Shown in pieces: positions 2,236-49,224 of a DNA stretch of 64,000 nucleotides. The notes under the pieces are model-generated. The model did no database searches, was not told the origin of the DNA, and was given only the letters and a program-made list of their open reading frames with translations. The DNA is from a virus. The stretch lies in the IMG/VR virus record IMGVR_UViG_3300018080_000112, positions 32,001 to 96,000 of that record. The stretch is one strand, 5' to 3'. The number at the start of each line of letters is the position of its first letter. The first letter of the stretch is position 1. The position numbers were made by a program, and so were the translations under genes.

Positions 2236-4494
2236 TTTTTTCCTGACTCCGTTTTTCCATCGCCTCAACAAAAGCATCCCACATTTCACGAAGCGGGATC
2301 TTCCAAGTCTCCCCCGTCCCCTTTTGCGAGAAGTACGGCGCTCCGTTGATCCCCCCGTGAACGTGACCAATCTTTGTTTCCCCGTCATCATCAAAAACCT
2401 CTGCGCCGCCCGTGAAAAAGGTCAGAATCCCCTCTGTATGCCTTGGTGACATCACCAGCTTCAATGGAACTTGAATCATGATCTCTTCATCTGGCGGACC
2501 CTTGATGCGCTCCTCATATGGAATACGAACCGGGTCCTCAAGATCGTCATGGTTTCCGTTGTCAACGTCCGGGCTGGTCTCTTCGATCTGTTCCTCTACA
2601 GGTTCCTCTGTTTCCTCTGTGGGGTTTTCTCTTGTCCGTGGTAGGTTGAGAGGATTCGCCGCTTTTGCGGCTCGCGCCAACTCCTCTTGTGACGCTTCGT
2701 ATCCATCTGGGTCCACAAAATGCCACCAAGCAATCGTACCGTCTATGTGTTCAAACAGAACCGCAATATCTGGCGGACCCGGTCGGTGGTCATGTTGAAA
2801 AGGGGGGTTCTTTGTCCATCCCAGAATAGTCCACCCCGCGCCGTGGTCCTCTTTTACCAAGCAAGGTTCTTTCCCCTCATTGAACCGCCACTTGATACGG
2901 AAAGGAGGCAACGGGCTTGCTGTGTGTGGTCCGTAGTTCAGGCGATTAAGCCGAGAACTATTAATCCTTTTTAATCCATCAAAAAGTAACATCTTCTTTC
3001 CCCTCTCCCGTTATATTTTATGTTCTTATGTAGACCCCACCTTTCCACCAATTGAAAAACCTTGCATTTTTGGTTCGCTCACCCCTTTGTAGCAACTGGT
3101 ACAGACCCACAACTCTTGTTGAACCTGAGCCATCGAATCCACAGCCTGGTTCGATGGCATCCCCTGACCGACCATGATTTTCCGCAAAGGAACATTATGA
3201 CTGACGTGGTGATTACTGCACTGTGTGATCGCACACTTTCCGAACTTAACCCCGCTCATGCGTCACCTTCTCGTATCACCTTTTTGTATGCCCAAAACTG
3301 GCGCAGAACTCTCAGATACTCGTCTTGAATCTCACCAATCAAGACCGCATCTTTCTCCGGCGGAACATCATGAGCACCGTCTTCCGGGCTGTCCAAGACA
3401 ATCCCGAACTGAATAGGTTTCAACAGCCGCCAGAGTTCCTCATGTGCTTCTTTGTAGACAGGTCCATTGTAACGATATGGTTTGATATAGTCACGTCCTA
3501 AAGAACTCTCCTCTTCAAGATTAACATTGTATATTTTCAGGTCACAGATCAACTCTGTGATTCGAATTTGTTCCTTCGTGGGGTACTCTTTCGGTAATTC
3601 CTGGTTGTCCGGATTCACAACCTCCAGGCGCGGCTCCTCTTGCACTTCTGATTCCTCATTCAATCGCACATACGGAATCACAGGCTCGCGAGGCATCTTC
3701 TCCTCTTGTGTCGATGCCACACCATTCCCCTTCTTACTTTTCCGCGCTGTGTTCTCCTGGTACATCTTCTGAGCTTTATCCATGATGCTCGCGGCGTTCT
3801 TTGCTCGCTGTTCCTTTTTCTTCTCCCGCGCCATATGAGCCACAGAACCGGGAACCGCATCATCAGCCATCTTAAAGATTGACCGCCACACGTTATCATG
3901 CGCCGGATTACCACAAGAGTACGTTTCGACCGCATCATCCAGGACCTTCTTTTTGTGCTCCTCGATCTGTTCTTCGAACTCCTTTTTGATCCAGATGAAC
4001 GCATCAACGATCTCCCCCATCTTGAACTCTTTGCAGAACTTCGGAAAGTGACGCTTCAAGTTCATAATCGGGACCGCTCGAATAATTTTGTCCTCCGTAT
4101 CAAACTCCACACTACCAATCGGCACAACACCAACCGCCGAAAGCGGACCCGCATAAAAGACCATGATGATCTGCGATTTGAACCCCAGAAAGACGGGAAT
4201 CAACTCTCCGTTTGTCTCTCGCTGGAAACGCTCTTGTTCTGGTCTCAAATCACCAAACAACTCTTCGAAACTCTTCTCTTCCATCTGTTACTTCTCCCCT
4301 GTGTACAGGTTTTCAATCAATTTCTATCGGAATACGGCGAACATTTCGGTTCTTTTTGCGCCGCTGTTTCCTCTTCCTCTTTGTCTGCGGATGTGTTGTG
4401 TGGTGCAACCACTCCTTTGGGATCTCTACGAGTTCGCCGCGCCGCATTCGGTAAAACTTGCCGTCAATTGAAATCAGTGTTCTCTTTCCCATTG

Positions 4495-13330: not shown

Positions 13331-13541
13331 AGTAAATCCCCATGTATATGGGGAATACTCCAACTCGCTGTCAGAGAAGATCTCCTTGACCGGAATATCC
13401 CCATGTATATGGGGAATACAGCCACAACCGTAAAATGGTGCCAAATAAACATGGAATATCCCCATGTATATGGGGAATACGGTCATCAAGGAGACGAGCG
13501 AAATCGAGCTTGCGGAATATCCCCATGTATATGGGGAATAC
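13331..13541 (-). CRISPR. Mini CRISPR array 1: 4 repeats, 3 spacers, type I-E-like repeat
   Basis: 28-nt repeat GTATTCCCCATATACATGGGGATATTCC (minus strand) at 13514-13541, 13453-13480, 13392-13419 and a degenerate copy at 13331-13358. Three unique 33-nt spacers, 61-bp period. The degenerate copy marks the trailer, so the array reads on the minus strand. Confidence 0.95.
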
Positions 13542-13687
13542 TCTTCTTCTGTTCACCACGCTGTTTCGTATTCCTTTACACATGGATTTTACTGCTTCAC
13601 AGGCTATTGCCGTTAACGGTCTTACATAAGCCTCCACAGTCAGAACCGTCATATTCAGCCGGTTATAGAACTTAATACTCATCTTCT
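13542..13687 (-). ncRNA. TnpB omegaRNA-derived scaffold / tracrRNA-like RNA, copy 1
   Basis: Directly 3' of tnpB. The minus strand reads CTGTGGAGGCT..GTAAGACC..AGCCTGTGAAGCAG, resembling IS605 right-end RNA scaffolds, then an anti-repeat GTAAAATCCATGTGTAAAGGAATAC (13568-13592). Confidence 0.75.
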
Positions 13688-14835
13688 AAAACAGTGACGC
13701 CTTTTTGTTTTAAGATAGACGCCGCTTCTTTCCTTATGTTGATTGCTGCATTGATGTCGCGGTCATGTTTTACACGACAACAAGGACAGGTCCAGTTTCG
13801 AACAGAAAGAGGGAGTTTGTCTAACACCTCGCCGCAAACATAACAAGTTTTGCTGGAAGGAAAAAAACGATCAATTTTCACAAGGTGACCGCCGGTTCTC
13901 TGCATCCGCGTCTCAATTCTAGTTCCAAAAGCGCCCCAACTGGCGTCTGCAATCGCCTTTGACAATTTTCTGTTCTTTTGCATGTTCTTTACTTGCAAGG
14001 TTTCCAATCCCACAGCTTGTACGTCTTTCAATGTTGCTGCAATCATCTGGTGTTGATATGTCTCTCGCTTATTTGCAACCTGTGCTTCTCTCTTTGCGAC
14101 AACAATACGAGCCTTTTCTTGGTTTTTTGACCCCTTCTTCTTTCTGGAGTATTTGCGCTTCTTTCGCCGTAAATTATCTTGCGCTTTCTTCAAGAACTTA
14201 GGATTGTCAACCTTCTCTCCCTCAGACGTAATGAACAAGTGAGTCAAACCAAGGTCAAGACCCACAACATCATCAACTTCCGTTAATTTTTTCGGATACT
14301 TCAAACCATCATCAATCAACAGAGACATGTAATACTTAGCTGTAGAAGCTCTTTTTAGTGTACATGTCTTTATCTTTGCGCCGTCTGGAATATTGCGATA
14401 AACATTTGCCTTTACCCATCCGATCTTTGGAATCCAGACCCGTTTATAATCATCTGATACACGAACACCACAAGGATATCCTGCAGACTGACAATGGTTA
14501 CTTTTTTTCTTGAATTTTGGAAAATTGGCGCGTCCTTCAAAGAAGTTAACAAACGCACGATGGAGATTCATAACAGCCTGATTCATCACATCACGCGGCG
14601 CTTTTCGTAGCCACGGATTCTTTTTAATCAAGTCATTCAACCGCCGCATCATGCTATGTGCGTCTACTTTGACCCGCAAACGAATTTTTTCACCCGTGAA
14701 AGGAGATTCTTTATAGATCATCTTTCGCCATGCCAGCATATTATTAAATACCCAGCGTGACACATCAAAATGGTCCTGGAATTTCAATTTTTGTTCCTCT
14801 GTTGGTTTCAGTGGAACTTTGATTCCATACATCAT
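13672..14835 (-). CDS. tnpB: TnpB-family RNA-guided endonuclease (IS200/IS605 OrfB), CRISPR-associated
   Basis: OrfB N-terminus 'KVPLKPTEEQK..SRWVFN', 'FPKFKKK', RuvC-I 'VGLDLGL', RuvC-II 'GLETLQVKNM', zinc finger CYVC..CPCC, RuvC-III 'HDRDINAAINI'. Start MMYG at 14835 with a GGAGGAG RBS; 387 aa. Confidence 0.95.
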   Translation of the reverse strand: MMYGIKVPLKPTEEQKLKFQDHFDVSRWVFNNMLAWRKMIYKESPFTGEKIRLRVKVDAHSMMRRLNDLIKKNPWLRKAPRDVMNQAVMNLHRAFVNFFEGRANFPKFKKKSNHCQSAGYPCGVRVSDDYKRVWIPKIGWVKANVYRNIPDGAKIKTCTLKRASTAKYYMSLLIDDGLKYPKKLTEVDDVVGLDLGLTHLFITSEGEKVDNPKFLKKAQDNLRRKKRKYSRKKKGSKNQEKARIVVAKREAQVANKRETYQHQMIAATLKDVQAVGLETLQVKNMQKNRKLSKAIADASWGAFGTRIETRMQRTGGHLVKIDRFFPSSKTCYVCGEVLDKLPLSVRNWTCPCCRVKHDRDINAAINIRKEAASILKQKGVTVLEDEY

Positions 14836-14873
14836 AATCTTCGATCTCCTCCGGTTACAAAAGCACATAAAAC

Positions 14874-15084
14874 CTTATATCCCCATGTATATGGGGAATA
14901 CCTCAACCCTTCATCATCTGGGTCAAAGAGTAGGGGAATATCCCCGTGTATATGGGGAATACTCGCCGATTGGCCTGTGTGGTGAAGTCAAGTCGGGAAT
15001 ATCCCCGCGTATATGGGGAATACTTCCTGGTCCACTTTTTGTTCCTCTCGCTGGTCGGAATATCCCCGCGTATATGGGGAATAC
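14874..15084 (-). CRISPR. Mini CRISPR array 2: 4 repeats, 3 spacers
   Basis: Repeats at 15057-15084 and 14996-15023 (GTATTCCCCATATACGCGGGGATATTCC), 14935-14962 (..ATACACGGGG..) and a degenerate copy at 14874-14901. The 33-nt spacers all differ from those of array 1. Confidence 0.95.
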
Positions 15085-15230
15085 TCTTCTTCTGTTCACC
15101 ACGCTGTTTCGTATTCCTTTACACACGGATTTTACTGCTTCACAGGCTATTGCCGTTAACGGTCTTATATAAGCCTCCACAGTCAGAACCGTCATATTCA
15201 GCCGGTTATAGAACTTAATACTCATCTTCT
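15085..15230 (-). ncRNA. TnpB omegaRNA-derived scaffold / tracrRNA-like RNA, copy 2
   Basis: 146-bp direct repeat of 13542-13687 with 2 substitutions. Includes the last tnpB codons (EDEY*) and an anti-repeat at 15111-15135. Confidence 0.75.
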
Positions 15231-16270
15231 TAAACGACCACACCAGGTGCAATACTGTTGACCATACTCACCGGGCGCTCGACTCTTGACCCAACTGTGA
15301 AATCGTCCTGGAACAGGATGGTTCGAACACACCTCGTTATCACAAGGGAAAAAATCATCCACTTTTTCAATTCTTTCCTTCCAGGTCCCATCTGGCTGGA
15401 GTTCCTTGAACACACGCTTTCCTGGCTTGCCTTTAGGTTGTTCAATAGATGCCACCACAGCATCCACAATCTCCGCGTCTTCCATAGGTTCCGTATTCTC
15501 AGCCAGACCAGAAAACGGGTCCGTGTCTCTCGACAAACCGCCGGGTCGGAAATCAAGAGGCATCTGCACCTCTGGCGGCTCGCGGTCTCCAAACAACTCT
15601 CGAATAGGAGCCAGGACCTCGTTAATGTGTGGGCGCACCGCATCTTCCGCTTCACGTAGCACTTGACGCGCCATATCTGCAACTTTCAGGTCCTTGTCTC
15701 CCGGCGGAAACTCACCGCGCCGAGAGAGGCGCTTATAAGCCGCAACAATAGGTTCATCACCGGAAGGGTCTTCTGGTACTTCCCACAACGACAAAGGTCT
15801 CTTAGGAGACTCTGGCGGCTCAATTTTGACCTGTTTCGGTCGTATGAAACGCAGATCAAACTCATCTTTGCCTGTAGAGATCTCATTCATCTCCTTCACC
15901 AGGTCTTCAATCAAAGAACCACTTCTGTTCCGACTCATCTCTCAGGCTCCTTTAGCAATCCAGCGGCTCTTTTGTGAAAAGCAAAACCATTGGCGACTCC
16001 GCTCGCTGTTCTTGCAAAAGCTGATGCAAGACCAGAGCCATAGCACCAGTAAAGACAGGGGGACCAATAAGCTCTCCACACTCATCCACTACATCTTCAC
16101 AAAGCTCATCCAACCGTCGCTGAACACCCTTGATCAATTCTTCAGCTTCGTCCTCTTCCTGGAGTTCTCTCAAGTACACATGAGAAGCACCCAACAACAA
16201 CTTCAAGAGTTCTTGTCCCTCATCCAGGATCTTCTCAATGTCCAGCGCACCGTCATCCAGAGAATACTTG

Positions 16271-25164: not shown

Positions 25165-25363
25165 TCAAGGCTGTTGATCTCTCTACAGAAATACGCTCAA
25201 GGCTGTTGATGCGTCTGTCCAAAGTGGGCGCGGCGGTTGACATTAGACTCCTTTTTCTACCTGGCTGTTGACTCGTGGGAATACCGCTTCAAGACTATTG
25301 ATCCCTCGTCTCTGATTTTTCAAGGCTGTTGACAAGGACAAATCAATGACGCAAGGCTGTTGA
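25165..25363 (+). repeat. Phased TCAAGGCTGTTGA box array A (7 units)
   Basis: 13-bp boxes at 25165, 25197, 25228, 25259, 25289, 25320 and 25351, separated by 17-19-nt variable linkers. Confidence 0.9.
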
Positions 25364-25394
25364 TACCCTTGACGATCCCACGTGGATATTGCTC

Positions 25395-25850
25395 TTATAC
25401 CCTCGGATCTCTCCGCGCTACAGGAACCTCCAGTCCCTTCTCAATGTAATACGCCAGCACACCCTCCGCGACCTTACCCAACTCCTCTACAGCTTCCCCC
25501 GGTGTCTCTCCTGTTTGACTGCATGCGCTGTGACCGAAATCCGGTAGCCACGCCAACCAATAGCTGTCTTCACCGTCCTCCATCCACTGCAAAGAGACCG
25601 GATACAACCTCAAAATCTCATCACCCGTTAACTTCTCCCCGTTGTAAGGGTGCGTACTTTCCGGACATAGCGGCTTGTACTTACCAAAATTGTAACGGTC
25701 ATTGTAGTGCTGCATCGCCGCCGCCCACGAAAGCGCCTCAAAAGACTCTACATGCTTCCGATCCACACCAAAAGCTAAATCCTTCTGTGTGTGATTCTCC
25801 GGGACCAAACCAGCATCACCGTCCGCCGTCTCCCATATCTCAAATTTCAT
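25395..25850 (-). CDS. HicB-like domain protein with an N-terminal extension
   Basis: C-terminal half 'YPVSLQWMEDGEDSYWLAWLPDF..CSQTGETPGEAVEELGKVAEGVLAYYIEKGLEVPV' matches the HicB antitoxin fold pattern. No hicA seen adjacent. Confidence 0.7.
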   Translation of the reverse strand: MKFEIWETADGDAGLVPENHTQKDLAFGVDRKHVESFEALSWAAAMQHYNDRYNFGKYKPLCPESTHPYNGEKLTGDEILRLYPVSLQWMEDGEDSYWLAWLPDFGHSACSQTGETPGEAVEELGKVAEGVLAYYIEKGLEVPVARRDPRV

Positions 25851-25860
25851 CTCTCTTCTC

Positions 25861-26155
25861 CCCAGGCTGTTGACCTCGAAACCGTCTCTGGTTCAAGACT
25901 GTTGACTTTCTGAAACACTGAAACAAAGCTGTTGACCCTTGTGAGATATCTTTTCAAAGCTGTTGACCCTCCGAAACCTCATAGCCCAAGGTTGTTGACA
26001 TTTCGTCTCTTACGCAAACAAAGCTGTTGATATCCTCGATAACGGTTCTCAAGGCTGTTGATCTCTCCACAGAGATACGCGCAAGGCTGTTGACTATCTG
26101 CAGGTTGTCGCTCAAGGCTGTTGATTTCGCCAATGACGGAACTCAAGGCTGTTGA
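25861..26155 (+). repeat. Phased TCAAGGCTGTTGA box array B (10 units)
   Basis: Boxes at 25861, 25893, 25923, 25954, 25986, 26018, 26049, 26081, 26112 and 26143 (period 30-32). Confidence 0.9.
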
Positions 26156-26474
26156 CACAGACAGGAGCTTCACAGCTTCGATACATCCGTCACCACCACA
26201 TCATCTCCCTTCAGATCTGTCCGACAAACGACACGCGGTGACACACCTGCAAACTTCTCCCGATACTCCCGTATAACCGGCGAATCCAACTCCGGATAGA
26301 TCCCGTGAATGTTCCAGAACCCTACATTGTCCGACTCTTTGCGGAACTCTCCGTACAACCCGTAACTCATCTCGATCACCAGGTCACCCTCCGGCGATAC
26401 GTCAGCATCTAAGAACGCCTGCGCGATCACCTCGTGAACTCGATACTTCTCCTGGTTTGTCTGGCTCATCTGAC

Positions 26475-26993
26475 TCATCTGGCTTTTTTGAGAAAATTCC
26501 GATTGTCCGGAAGCGTCTCCATGATCTCCGTCACTTGCTTCAAAGACAACGGAAGATAGTTGTTGTTGTCCACTCCAACATCCCATTGTTTACCAACAGG
26601 AGGCAAACCGCCGTGACTGTGACCGTACAGTTGCCAACTGTTGTAATGAGAAAGACCCCAAACTCGCATCGCGTAATGACAAACCACAATGTGCTGACCC
26701 GAAAGCTTCTTCTCCCAGATCTCATGTGCTGTCTTGTCCAACCACTGGTCGTGACTACCGCGCAAAAAGATGTGCGTCCCGTTCAGAGCCTCCACATACC
26801 TTTGCGCATCTTCGCCCCGTCGTAACGTGAAATCACCAGCATGCACCACAATGTCATTGTCCGTGACCACGCTGTTGTGCAAACGAGCCAACTCCACATC
26901 CATCTCCTCCACCGTCGCAAACGGACGGTCACAGTACTTGATGATGTTCGTGTGTCCGTAGTGCTCGTCCGCTGTGAAAAAATATGTGCTCAT
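26475..26993 (-). CDS. Calcineurin-like metallophosphoesterase
   Basis: Motifs 'ADEHYGH', 'HAGDF', 'RGSHD', 'CHY' and 'YGHSH'. Confidence 0.9.
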   Translation of the reverse strand: MSTYFFTADEHYGHTNIIKYCDRPFATVEEMDVELARLHNSVVTDNDIVVHAGDFTLRRGEDAQRYVEALNGTHIFLRGSHDQWLDKTAHEIWEKKLSGQHIVVCHYAMRVWGLSHYNSWQLYGHSHGGLPPVGKQWDVGVDNNNYLPLSLKQVTEIMETLPDNRNFLKKAR

Positions 26994-27011
26994 CCCCGTA
27001 TCTACTCCGTT

Positions 27012-27270
27012 TCAAGACTGTTGACCTACCTAAAGAACTCAAAAAAGGCTGTTGACGATACATACTTACCTTTTCAAGACCGTTGACCCTGTTATTACGG
27101 GCAAAAAGGCTGTTGACCGTACCCGTCATGAAGCTCAAGGCTGTTGACACCTTCGCTGTTCCGCTCAAGGCTGTTGACAACGGTTTAGCCTTTTCTCAAG
27201 GCTGTTGACTATCAAGATGAGACAATCAAGGCTGTTGACTTGGACTCCCGACATCATTCAAGGTTGTTGA
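27012..27270 (+). repeat. Phased TCAAGGCTGTTGA box array C (9 units)
   Basis: Boxes at 27012, 27043, 27074, 27104, 27135, 27165, 27196, 27226 and 27258. Confidence 0.9.
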
Positions 27271-29111: not shown

Positions 29112-32100
29112 CGAAATTCGTCCGTCCAATTCCTACGCCGGACGTAGGTCAAAAAAAGCGCGAAGTCTTTTATCTCGTAGGGGGAGATTTTTTACCCGAA
29201 GTGACCTAAGTGATTGAAAATACTACGGCGAGATTTTGGCGAGATTCCGCGAGATTTGTAGGACGCGGAGCGGCTCTTGACACTGAACAGAACCGACTAG
29301 TTGCTTTGCGGCTTGCCTAGCAACGGACAACCGGCGGCGCACGGCATCTCGGCGCAGTCCAGATCATGCTCCGCCTGATACTCTTCGGGGTCCACATCAT
29401 CACCAAGGATTGGCGCGGCGTGATCCCGACAAGCACCTTCAGCCGATTCCTCTTGTGCAGCGCAGTGACGATCCCACGCCTCTACGTTATGATCGTAGCT
29501 CATTGGTCAACCTCCATTCTGGCTTGCGTTCTCCGCTTGCTCTTGGTCCTCTTGTTCCAGTTCCTTGGCAAGCTCAACACACTCCTCCAAGGGGTCCTCA
29601 ATGGCATAACACGCGGCGACAGGGTCATAACCGCAAGAGACCTCTCCGACCTTCTCCGCGATCCACTCTAGCTTTTCTCGTAGCTTTTTCGCCTTCATCA
29701 GTCAACCTCCAATCCATTCCGGCTTGAGTTCTTCGGGAATGAAGTCTTCCAGAAACACATCCCACGACCCGTCATCGTACTGACGTTCAAGGATGTAGCT
29801 GTTGGGTCCAAGGACCTTGAAACGAAGCGTCGTGTCCGCCGGAGGGTTCTCTGTGCCGAGATATCCCCACTCCTCCACGTGGTCATTCTCCCAATGATCC
29901 ATAAGCTCGCCAAGGGTGAAGGTCTGCGGCTCCTTCTCAAACGACTCAAGGTGCTCGCACTGTTCCTCGAACTCTCGATCCGCTTCGGGCTGATACAGCG
30001 CTTGGCGTTGCTTGCTATGCTCATCCAGTAGCTCGTTGGCGGTCTTGTGATGCTCGACAAGCATCTTCGCTTCGCCCGGTTTCAGTCCATCCCAGAAATT
30101 GCTCATTGTCCAATCCTCCAATCCGCAAAGGGTTACACTAGATCAAGGGCAAGCCTTTTTTCTGACTACTCTTCAAGCTCTTGCCACTGCAGCACACAAG
30201 GTCCGCCGCGCTCGAAAACAGGTCGCGGAATGGTCGCAAAGATCTTTTCCTGGAACATCATCTCGTCTACTTTGCGCGGACCAGGATCAAGGGTCAGTGA
30301 GTACATCCCGATCATAAAGACCTCGTTGGGGTAACGGGTCTCGAAGATCTGAACAGTCTCCGCCCCGCTTGTGACGTACCCAAACCGGCGGATATCCTCA
30401 AAGGCAATCGAGGGATAATAGCCACGCGGCTCTTTGGCGTAGTTCAGCTTGCCGGGGTCCGGGCTATCCAATAACAGCCTTGCACATTCCTTGAAGTACA
30501 ACCGCCGCTGGATCTGTTTCGCCGCTACGTACCCTTCATCTGTCAAGGTCCCGTGGGAGTCCAGCAAGCCACGGTTCTGAAGTGCTTGGACCTTTTGCTT
30601 GTGGAAGGACGGCTTGACCTTCCAGCCCTTCGAGCGGAGCACCAGCACCGCAAACAACTCTTGTCCCCTGTTCAGCTTTTTCATGTATCTGTTCCTTTCG
30701 CCGGGTTCGTGATATCCCGGTAGATCTCGAAAGCTTTCCGAACCACTTCGGATTGGTCGCCCGGTACGGCTCGCACAACGGTCTCAAACAGCGCATCACT
30801 GTCGTCTTCATCATCACACTCAAAGATATCTTGATCGTGCTCATAGGACCAGTGACGCCCCGTGTTGTGGTCATAGATGTTGATCGTATGACACTTGCCA
30901 GGGAGTTCCAGATCATAGACGTAATCCGTAACATCTGCAAAGGTCTCGAAACCATGAAGGACGGCGTCAGCCTTCAGAGCGCCGTTCACAAATTCGGTGT
31001 TGCCTGTGCTGAAAAGGTACAAAGTAAACCCTTGAAGCTTCGTCATTTTACCATCTCCCGTTGTCTGTTTGTCTGTCCTACTTAGCAAGACGTTAGCCGT
31101 TTCGAGATCTGACAAGGTTTCTGAAAAAGTTAGAAGCGAAGCACCTAAATAGTTAGAAGCGAAGCGCTGAAATAGTTAGGACCTACCCTTTTGGTCCGAT
31201 CTTCGCCAATCCTAACCAATCCTAGTCTTCCAGCAAGGGAAGCTTTTCGATGAATGCAACGGTCTCCGGAAGCGCTGTAAGCCACTTGCGCCGATAGTAG
31301 ACCTTCCAGCCCAAAGTGAGATCTTCAAGGGCACAGAAGGACGCTACAAAGGAACCGTACCAGCGAACATGTTCGGCGGTCTTGTGCTTCGGGTCCGCCT
31401 GATAAATAACCGGGTTGCCGGTACACTGCGACCGGACCTTCTTCAAGTTGTCCAATCCCGTAATCATATCGTGGGCGCGGGTCGCTTCGTGAATGAGTTC
31501 CGGAACAAATTGGGTCTTGCCTTGTTTCTGGTTCGCTTGCAATTTCATCGATCCCGCTCCTACTTCGTTAGGGTCCTGTTGGTAGAGACACACTTTCTAG
31601 CAAAGTGCATCCAGGTAGCTCAGAGAAAACTGTTGTCCGTCCACCACAATCTGATCAATATCAAACGGCGCATGGTACACAACACAGCCACGGCGGACCA
31701 GCTTAGCCAGATTACGAAGCTTCGTTGTGGGCTTGCGCTGGTAGTTCACACAAACGTTCGCCGTGAATCCCAATCCCGCCGCGTTCAACTCCTGAACCAA
31801 TTCCGCCTTCGAAGATGCCTTGCGTCGTTGCCTTGCCATTGTTCCAATCCTCCGCTTGTCTGGGGTCACCTTTCGGCTCCTCCGGGTCTATTGTTGTCTG
31901 TTTGTGTTTCCGTGTCTTGTCGTGGCTCTCTCAGCCATTGATTGCTTCCAGAATGCGAACCTTCAAAGAGAGGTCATACCAGATCTCGTAACCGAACCAG
32001 TAAGCTTTTCCGCAGTAGCTGAGATAGTGATCCTTGATGATCTCTTGAACTTCTTCGACCTTGTCCGCCGGGATCAAAAGCGCGGACTCTTTGATTGTTC

Positions 32101-38723: not shown

Positions 38724-39326
38724 TCAAGGCTATTGATCTTGGTTGTAACATCCTGGTTCGAGGTTGTTGATCATTTACACTTCAAGCCGCAAGGTTGTTG
38801 ACTGAAAACGTTGATCTTCGTTCAAGGTTGTTGACTATATGTTATACCAAATCGCAAGGCTGTTTCCCCTATCTCGGGAGTAGTGCAAGGCTATTAATAG
38901 AGACACATGTTTTGTCAAAAGCGTACCGTTTTCGGGTACAAAAGTTTGCAAAGCTGTTGACCATGCGGAACTTCGCTGCAAGGCTGTTGATCGATGTTCC
39001 CGCCATAAACAAGGCTGTTTCCTTCTCGTAGCACCAAGCGAAGGCTGTTGACCGTTCGGAATGCTCTTCAAGGCTGTTGACCATTCGGAATGCTCTTCAA
39101 GGCTGTTGACCATGCGGAACTCCGCTTCAAGGCTGTTAATGATGCGGTTGTAGTTCAAGGCTACTGACTCCAATTGAGGAGCGGTTCAAGGCTTGTTGAC
39201 CGTAATCCTACCCGTGGTCAAGGCTGATGATGATGCTCTCACTTCTTTATCAAGGCTGTTTTCGTTACAGTTCCTTTCCGTCAAAGGCTGTTAACTCCGT
39301 TTGAGGGGCATTTGCAAGGCTATTGA
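38724..39326 (+). repeat. Phased TCAAGGCTGTTGA box array D (~19 units)
   Basis: Boxes from 38724 to 39314 at ~28-34 bp spacing; one 63-bp gap (38885 to 38948) contains a promoter-like motif. Confidence 0.88.
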
Positions 39327-48461: not shown

Positions 48462-48652
48462 TCAAGGTTGTTGACTAGGGGTGGTTCAAGACTGTTGACT
48501 AGTGTGACTTACAAGGTCAAGGCTATTGACCGAGTCAGAATCTAAGTTCAAGGCTGTTGATATCGGTCGGATACGGTTTCAAGGCTGTTGATATCGAGCC
48601 GCATACAGGTCAAGACTGTTAACAAAATGCGGATTGGGTTCGTAGCTGTTGA
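48462..48652 (+). repeat. Phased TCAAGGCTGTTGA box array E (7 units)
   Basis: Boxes at 48462, 48486, 48517, 48548, 48579, 48610 and 48640. Further pairs at 49166/49197 and 51181/51214. Confidence 0.85.
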
Positions 48653-48667
48653 CCTTCTCGAAAAGAG

Positions 48668-49153
48668 TCACGGTTTCGCCATTATCTTTTTGATCTTACG
48701 CATAAGGACAGGTGTCTTCATGCGCATGGGGCGTCTCTTCCGGGCTGGTGGAAAAGGCATGTTTTTGACTACCTTGTTTGCGAATCGTTTATCCGGTAGA
48801 CCTGCGGCGGATTTGTTTGCTTCAGCAAAGAGGCGAAACAACCGCATTGTCTTCTCTTCAGAACTGACCTTGTGGTACTTTTCAATAAGAGATTTTATCT
48901 TGTCGTAGTTCTTTCCATAAACGCGCATCCCCAACAAATCAACCTTTTGGTCAATGGCAATCATCTGGTTCTGTTGTGACCGCAACAAACGGAATGCTGC
49001 AACTGACATTTTGTGTTGCTTCTTCATGTTGTCAGAGACTACTTTCACGTAATATCCGACCATTGTGACAACCAGGAAACCGATAATACTGAAAGCTGTT
49101 GTTGCCCAAAACTTCCAGGACGGACCTCGTTTTGTGGTCTCTTCATCGCTCAT
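48668..49153 (-). CDS. Single-pass membrane protein with a basic C-terminus
   Basis: Hydrophobic 'FWATTAFSIIGFLVVTMVGYYV' near the N-terminus. Confidence 0.5.
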   Translation of the reverse strand: MSDEETTKRGPSWKFWATTAFSIIGFLVVTMVGYYVKVVSDNMKKQHKMSVAAFRLLRSQQNQMIAIDQKVDLLGMRVYGKNYDKIKSLIEKYHKVSSEEKTMRLFRLFAEANKSAAGLPDKRFANKVVKNMPFPPARKRRPMRMKTPVLMRKIKKIMAKP

Positions 49154-49224
49154 CTTGTTCTCCTTTCAAGGCTATTAATATAATACGCATCACATTTCAA
49201 AACTGTTGACTGGATCGCCTAAAG

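Follow-up and report, generated by a model that had tools for sequence, protein, structure and literature searches.

Intermediates between transposons and CRISPR systems, named TranC, have reportedly been described by Jin et al. in Cell in 2025. Whether the arrays of type V systems arose by duplication of an omegaRNA segment or by the joining of an existing array was left open by Altae-Tran et al. 2023 (PMC10691335). Activity has been shown for the phage-encoded CauTranC9, whose spacers match phages (bioRxiv 10.64898/2026.03.27.714800). Cas12r of Thermus Lalka phages uses 29-bp repeats resembling those of the host type I-E system together with spacers of 31-33 nt, targets other mobile elements and was proposed to depend on host I-E adaptation (bioRxiv 10.64898/2026.04.20.719267). 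Both a phage-borne TranC of TnpB size and an effector that a phage combines with I-E-like repeats are thus already published.

We analysed a window of 64,000 nt (positions 32,001 to 96,000 of IMG/VR record IMGVR_UViG_3300018080_000112) in which a tnpB gene stands between two CRISPR mini-arrays, each headed by an RNA scaffold. The source record is a linear virus genome of 143,941 bp, 89% complete, which encodes terminase, PolA, RecA and gp32, and DNA of the locus is present in sediment and seawater metagenomes. Since RecA matches proteins of several groups, Desulfobacteraceae and Oligoflexia among them (62-66%), and the terminase matches lie below 30%, the phage was not assigned to a host. The minus-strand order is a 238-aa upstream gene, scaffold 2, array 2, tnpB, scaffold 1 and array 1, and the layout given in the first-pass annotation was confirmed. 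Scaffold and first repeat of each module lie in a direct repeat, and because the stop codon of the upstream gene falls inside this duplicated block, transcription of the phage operon may run on into both modules; a promoter scan returned matches at chance level. Profiles for Cas1, Cas4, Cas6e and Cas7e and for Y1 TnpA and resolvase had no match in the 143,941-bp record (89% complete), while the positive controls matched. The two arrays adjoin tnpB with none of the tested cas families elsewhere in the record, and the absence of tnpA, cas1, cas6 and cascade genes, noted earlier for the window, extends across the 144 kb.

Table. Features of the tnpB locus, in the order in which they are read on the minus strand (positions are those of the window; E-values are rough).
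Feature	Position	Strand	Remarks
Upstream gene, 238 aa, function not known	15222..15938	-	stop codon within duplicated block
180-bp direct repeat (scaffold + first repeat), copy 2	15056-15235	-	97% identical to copy 1
Scaffold 2, omegaRNA core	15135..15210	-	covariance model E 8.2e-7; alignment
Scaffold 2 parts: 5' stem-loop with pseudoknot loop GAATAT; stems 2/3	15199-15194 (loop)	-	
Anti-repeat 2, in place of IS605 right-end hairpin	15111..15129	-	duplex -22.6 kcal/mol, 2/2000 shuffles
26-nt linker or leader 2, anti-repeat 2 to first repeat	15085..15110	-	putative natural single-guide loop; in-cis fold
Mini-array 2: four 28-nt repeats, three 33-nt spacers	14874..15084	-	last repeat degenerate
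Array 2 spacers	15024-15056, 14963-14995, 14902-14934	-	
tnpB, 387 aa, IS605 type	13672..14835	-	RBS GGAGG at 14852-14848
180-bp direct repeat, copy 1	13513..13692	-	97% identical to copy 2
Scaffold 1, omegaRNA core	13592..13667	-	covariance model E 1.1e-7; pseudoknot loop GAATAT at 13656-13651
Anti-repeat 1	13568..13586	-	duplex -21.6 kcal/mol, 2/2000 shuffles
26-nt linker or leader 1	13542..13567	-	identical to module 2 linker
Mini-array 1: four 28-nt repeats, three 33-nt spacers	13331..13541	-	last repeat degenerate
Array 1 spacers	13481-13513, 13420-13452, 13359-13391	-	

The protein is of the IS200/IS605 type with HTH, OrfB_IS605 and zinc-ribbon domains, and its RuvC residues (D194/E278/D360) and zinc-finger cysteines (C331/C334/C350/C353) are invariant in the family alignment, being kept on a branch of 1.3 changes per site. 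Its AlphaFold model (pLDDT 87) shows no added domains and comes closest to the folds of ISFba1 and ISDra2 TnpB, the best Foldseek matches being 8IAZ and 8H1J (TM ~0.78). Scores of 38 bits with the Cas12f2 model (cut-off 450) and 79 bits with C2c8 (cut-off 350) place it outside Cas12f and Cas12n, and the match to LaTranC, the sole TranC compared, covers the RuvC end only and is weaker (E 2e-29) than that to ISDra2 TnpB (E 2e-49). In a quick IQ-TREE phylogeny without bootstrap, made from the retrieved homologs only and holding no named Cas12 or TranC sequences, the protein nests with IS605 TnpBs (SH-aLRT 99), and no branch of this clade is longer than its own (1.31 changes per site). The nearest protein, P0122, is 50% identical and lies inside a complete IS605 element (locus L091), which has a normal right end and carries a tnpA of the Y1 type, though a divergent one; the search for relatives of 50-99% identity found none. 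CRISPR arrays were absent at relatives P0003, P0005, P0122 and P0123, and a type I-E-like array was found at 0 of 80 viral tnpB loci. Phylogeny and homolog neighbourhoods, proposed as a check by the first-pass annotation, thus gave IS605 TnpBs without arrays as the closest relatives within this tree. The protein deviates at 27% of the columns conserved in the family, where the median is 6%; this contrast is inflated because the relatives are closer to each other, and the excess could also reflect decay. Among the departures, R81/D82/N85 align with the TAM-reading helix residues K76/F77/Q80 of ISDra2, where the family has S/Q/Q, from which we infer a changed TAM. Among the other viral tnpB loci, one that is 37% identical (L030:2193-2448, IMGVR_UViG_3300010281_000249) has four repeats of 38-39 nt with a period of 71-73 nt, which stop ~50 nt before the start of the tnpB match, and keeps its normal omegaRNA end; it is a candidate for a separate TnpB-CRISPR link. 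Another (L032, about 3550-3730) has a second, tandem copy of the omegaRNA start behind tnpB.

As Rfam returned no match to the scaffolds, we built a covariance model from the omegaRNAs of 27 relatives, with the sequence of the window excluded. In 96 kb it found exactly the two scaffolds, and the terminal hairpin (stem 4) of the model was unmatched in both. In close relatives the omegaRNA overlaps the tail of tnpB (LKAxGxTVSAxGGLRK). Here the protein ends in KGVTVLEDEY without overlap with the core, which lies just 3' of the stop codon, and the downstream scaffold still reads DCGGLCKT (compare ACGGLDKS in the tail of relatives); the omegaRNA has thus become uncoupled from the reading frame. Neither a right-end hairpin nor a TCAC/TCAA end of IS605 type was found at the locus, and the 38 nt that precede the tnpB start contain no left-end hairpin, so that of an IS605 element the HTH, RuvC D/E/D and zinc finger of TnpB are present, and tnpA and the transposon ends are missing. 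Two earlier claims are borne out here: the origin of the scaffolds from an omegaRNA, as the model of the relatives' omegaRNAs matches both, and the replacement of the transposon-end hairpin, in whose place an anti-repeat is found with the transposon parts gone.

This 19-nt anti-repeat pairs with nt 1-7 and 11-20 of the repeat, and shuffled duplexes have a mean of ~-10 kcal/mol. The two scaffold copies differ at two internal sites. A13583 pairs with U17 of the array-1 repeats and G15126 with C17 of array-2 repeats 1-3, so that the change from A13583 to G15126 matches that from U17 to C17 (A-U to G-C), a change present in separate assemblies. When scaffold 1 is paired with array 2, the duplex reaches -19.1, ~3.5 kcal/mol worse than the cognate pairing. 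The difference between the modules is suggestive of a compensatory change, and since relatives between 50% and 99% identity are lacking, it represents one event and not covariation at the family level. In addition, the scaffold loop GAATAT pairs with repeat nt 22-27 through 6/6 Watson-Crick pairs, which ~1% of shuffles do. Provided that the scaffold extends one base into the spacer, this pairing sits in the -3 to -8 register in which the loop of the relatives pairs with their transposon end, and it leads to a repeat/spacer register of 29+32; the pseudoknot architecture of ISDra2 has the same geometry (PMC10097598). As in TranC, computation thus gives a tracr part derived from the reRNA, with an anti-repeat, and a pseudoknot completed by the repeat. 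In the predicted fold of the naked RNA, the anti-repeat helix of module 2 reaches 0.9-1.0, and in module 1 the I-E hairpin stands at 0.63 versus 0.36 for the anti-repeat helix.

Both arrays have a period of 61 nt, and their six spacers are all distinct; the hairpin of the last repeat of array 1 with its U-rich tail looks like a terminator. The repeat is identical at 21-23 of 28 positions to those of GTDB arrays which share the 61-nt period, one of them adjoining cas3 and cse1, and the earlier description of the arrays as type I-E-like stands on this ground. A hairpin repeat of 28-29 nt and this period are those of type I-E, and of the cascade and cas1 genes that such a system has in the same genome, Cas1, Cas6e and Cas7e are absent. 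The CCCC/GGGG hairpin and the 8-nt handle are retained. Since natural I-E-like arrays that lack TnpB can also have a handle of the TTC type, few changes to the repeat were needed, and host Cas6e and Cascade may still be able to use it; a reading of the TTC handle as adapted to TnpB was dropped on this ground. The A at repeat position 24 is absent from the other retrieved I-E-like arrays except for one degenerate copy, and no exact copy of the repeat was found in other DNA. At six viral loci with TTC-handle I-E-like arrays, the stretches examined gave no tnpB match and no convincing omegaRNA. Further phage contigs (L103, L105/L107, L108) carry several type I-E-like arrays with no tnpB in the stretch examined, and in L103 (252 kb) at least three mini-arrays follow a repeated leader. 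Exact 18-21 nt seeds of four spacers had no target in IMG/VR, neither array had a significant blastn match among phages and plasmids, and self-targeting by the spacers was not above the shuffled background. One spacer had 18 seed matches in JGI metagenomes, the best at 26/33, which were judged to be chance.

The locus resembles TranC in an effector of TnpB size (~300-600 aa in TranC), an IS605/IS607 origin, an adjoining array and a reRNA split into tracr-like and crRNA parts (PMC13565253; bioRxiv 10.1101/2025.09.28.678669, 10.64898/2026.03.27.714800). In contrast to the TranC clades, whose repeats are given as 32-38 bp and mostly of unknown subtype in the TranC preprint, the repeat here is 28/29 nt and I-E-like. 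A further difference from TranC as described in these sources is that the first repeat is linked in cis to the scaffold, which is present twice and flanks the gene. With 387 aa and its place in the IS605 clade, the protein is a RuvC effector of TnpB size from an IS605/IS607 TnpB. The locus thus has the sequence-level features of a TranC and is predicted to work like one. It resembles CauTranC9 in being phage-encoded and TnpB-sized, without added domains and with a short array (bioRxiv 10.64898/2026.03.27.714800); compared by description, CauTranC9 has 38-bp repeats, five in number, and a clade mean of 414 aa, whereas here two scaffold-array modules accompany a protein of 387 aa. With Cas12r it shares a TnpB-derived phage effector and the lack of adaptation genes (bioRxiv 10.64898/2026.04.20.719267), but Cas12r has ~564 aa, needs crRNA only and no tracrRNA, and its array lies 15 bp after the gene, whereas here the omegaRNA core and anti-repeat are kept in the scaffold and the protein has not grown. 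Domains, fold, omegaRNA core and pseudoknot register are those of IS605 TnpBs (ISDra2, ISFba1, P0122), from which the locus differs in having no tnpA or ends, an uncoupled omegaRNA, a stem 4 split into anti-repeat and repeat, and an altered TAM-reading helix. Viral CRISPR mini-arrays that work with host Cas proteins and have repeats of the host type (PMC11656645) are short, phage-borne and free of cas genes, as are the arrays here, whose I-E-like repeats may likewise be of a host type; here three spacers per array adjoin an own nuclease and scaffold. The locus falls outside IS605 elements, type I-E systems, Cas12r and Cas12f.

The two-module locus, whole or in part, was found with identical spacers in separate ENA, JGI and Logan assemblies, which rules out a mis-assembly of the window, and no spacer turnover was seen among these assemblies. 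Runs X2 and X5 and L112-L115 contain contigs in which the two scaffolds are joined and the 1543 bp with array 2 and tnpB are missing. These deletion forms carry either allele at the anti-repeat site, and in two of the TnpB-less forms the anti-repeat of module 2 stands before array 1, with which it pairs by way of a G-U wobble. Their origin is explained most simply by recombination that recurs between the direct repeats, and individual deletion contigs may be assembly collapses.

We consider it probable that the locus is a nascent TranC-like type V system, most plausibly fed by host I-E adaptation. The phage would have domesticated an IS605 TnpB, which became a minimal CRISPR nuclease of type V (TranC-like), the type I-E-like repeat supplying the partner strand of stem 4 and the 3' strand of the pseudoknot. 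In each module, scaffold, linker, first repeat and first spacer would form a natural single guide whose start lies near spacer nt 2, in the 29+32 register known from type I-E, and the cis position of the first spacer of each array, via the 26-nt linker, may explain why the scaffold is duplicated. Of the six guides proposed at first pass, this geometry accommodates the first spacer of each array, and the other four would have to load by trans or looped pairing. Spacers may be inserted by host I-E Cas1-Cas2, as proposed for Cas12r, because of spacer length and repeat type. TnpB would cut DNA beside an altered TAM during infection, and by analogy its targets would most likely be competing mobile elements. 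Against this reading we counted the empty spacer searches, the lack of turnover, the restriction to a single lineage, the TnpB-less forms, the hairpin preference of module 1 and the departures at 27% of columns. A modest chance is given to a bolder version, in which an active 387-aa type V effector that has not outgrown its transposon ancestor arose through capture of a class 1 (I-E) repeat and not through duplication of its own RNA end, with arrays of dual use. By switching between two folds, the anti-repeat helix and the Cas6e hairpin, the RNA would then direct the same spacers to phage TnpB or host Cascade, and host Cas1-Cas2 would supply new guides.

The retained CCCC/GGGG hairpin, 61-nt period and 8-nt handle, and the natural occurrence of TTC handles without TnpB, would also suit arrays that serve, also or only, the host type I-E Cascade as viral mini-arrays do, an established mechanism (PMC11656645), TnpB being a partial or former user. 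Host Cas6e would cut the repeat hairpin and Cascade-Cas3 would destroy competitors; module 1 favours the hairpin in silico, and the TnpB-less forms keep array 1. Such arrays, however, need no omegaRNA core, anti-repeat or pseudoknot loop, all of which are kept in both modules with one co-varying position, the anti-repeat nearly abolishes the hairpin in the predicted fold of module 2, and A24 of the repeat is not seen in the other retrieved I-E-like arrays bar the degenerate copy, so we regard service to Cascade as rather unlikely.

The intact reading frame, RBS, catalytic triad and zinc finger, the confident protein model and scaffold copies that are 97% identical with a pairing-preserving change make it quite improbable that a once-functional TnpB-CRISPR system is now decaying, with frozen arrays, a drifting protein and tnpB repeatedly deleted between the scaffolds. 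Decay would account for the identical spacers in all assemblies, the deletion forms that several of them contain, in which the anti-repeat site has one or the other of two alleles, and the many substitutions at conserved positions (e.g. YK to TR at 309-310); all samples may nevertheless come from one young population, in which no spacer turnover is expected. Less probable still is an ordinary IS605 or non-autonomous tnpB that inserted by chance into an existing array and uses a conventional single omegaRNA guide. The protein does nest among IS605 TnpBs and its nearest relative sits in an intact IS605, but right-end hairpin, TCAC end, left-end hairpin and tnpA are all lacking, and the scaffold is duplicated before both arrays with an anti-repeat that chance would rarely give; this anti-repeat already largely refutes such an insertion.

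If the reading as a TranC-like system holds, the locus would be a clear example of an already described step from transposon to CRISPR-Cas12. It would offer a readable case of the second of the two routes to type V arrays, the joining of a pre-existing array, because repeat and scaffold can still be recognised as type I-E and as an IS605 omegaRNA, respectively, and the junction is visible base by base. In a literature search whose scope did not include the main TranC paper, we found no paper on an omegaRNA scaffold with an anti-repeat to an I-E repeat in two flanking modules. The 50%-identical, intact IS605 of P0122 provides a control of the ancestral type, and the two modules, as a natural pair, lend themselves to swaps. 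Should the protein be active, it would rank with the smallest nucleases associated with CRISPR, and its TAM may have changed.

The same phage encodes, outside the window, a protein of 464 aa in which an RRXRR domain of the IscB type was recognised (E 3e-68; G000:C1:3072-4466, minus strand), and may therefore carry a second RNA-guided nuclease. Its DNA polymerase A contains an intein (L008:4312-7797; G000:C1:100312-103797). Moreover, a 12-nt box (CAAGGCTGTTGA, at most 1 mismatch) occurs in 55 copies, all on one strand, in arrays of ~31-nt period with variable linkers, at 25165-27270, 38724-39326, 48462-49200 and 51215 of the window and also at G000:C1 7417-22755 and 96316. The window further holds two dispersed motif families (AGAGACACA core; GGCAAGACTTTTTTCTGACT) and a repeated GTTAGGACCTAAC palindrome (2141, 16543, 28219, 38891, 48405, 51301; 9637, 20577, 21394, 30137, 32478, 34187, 35582), which are probably phage promoters or operators.
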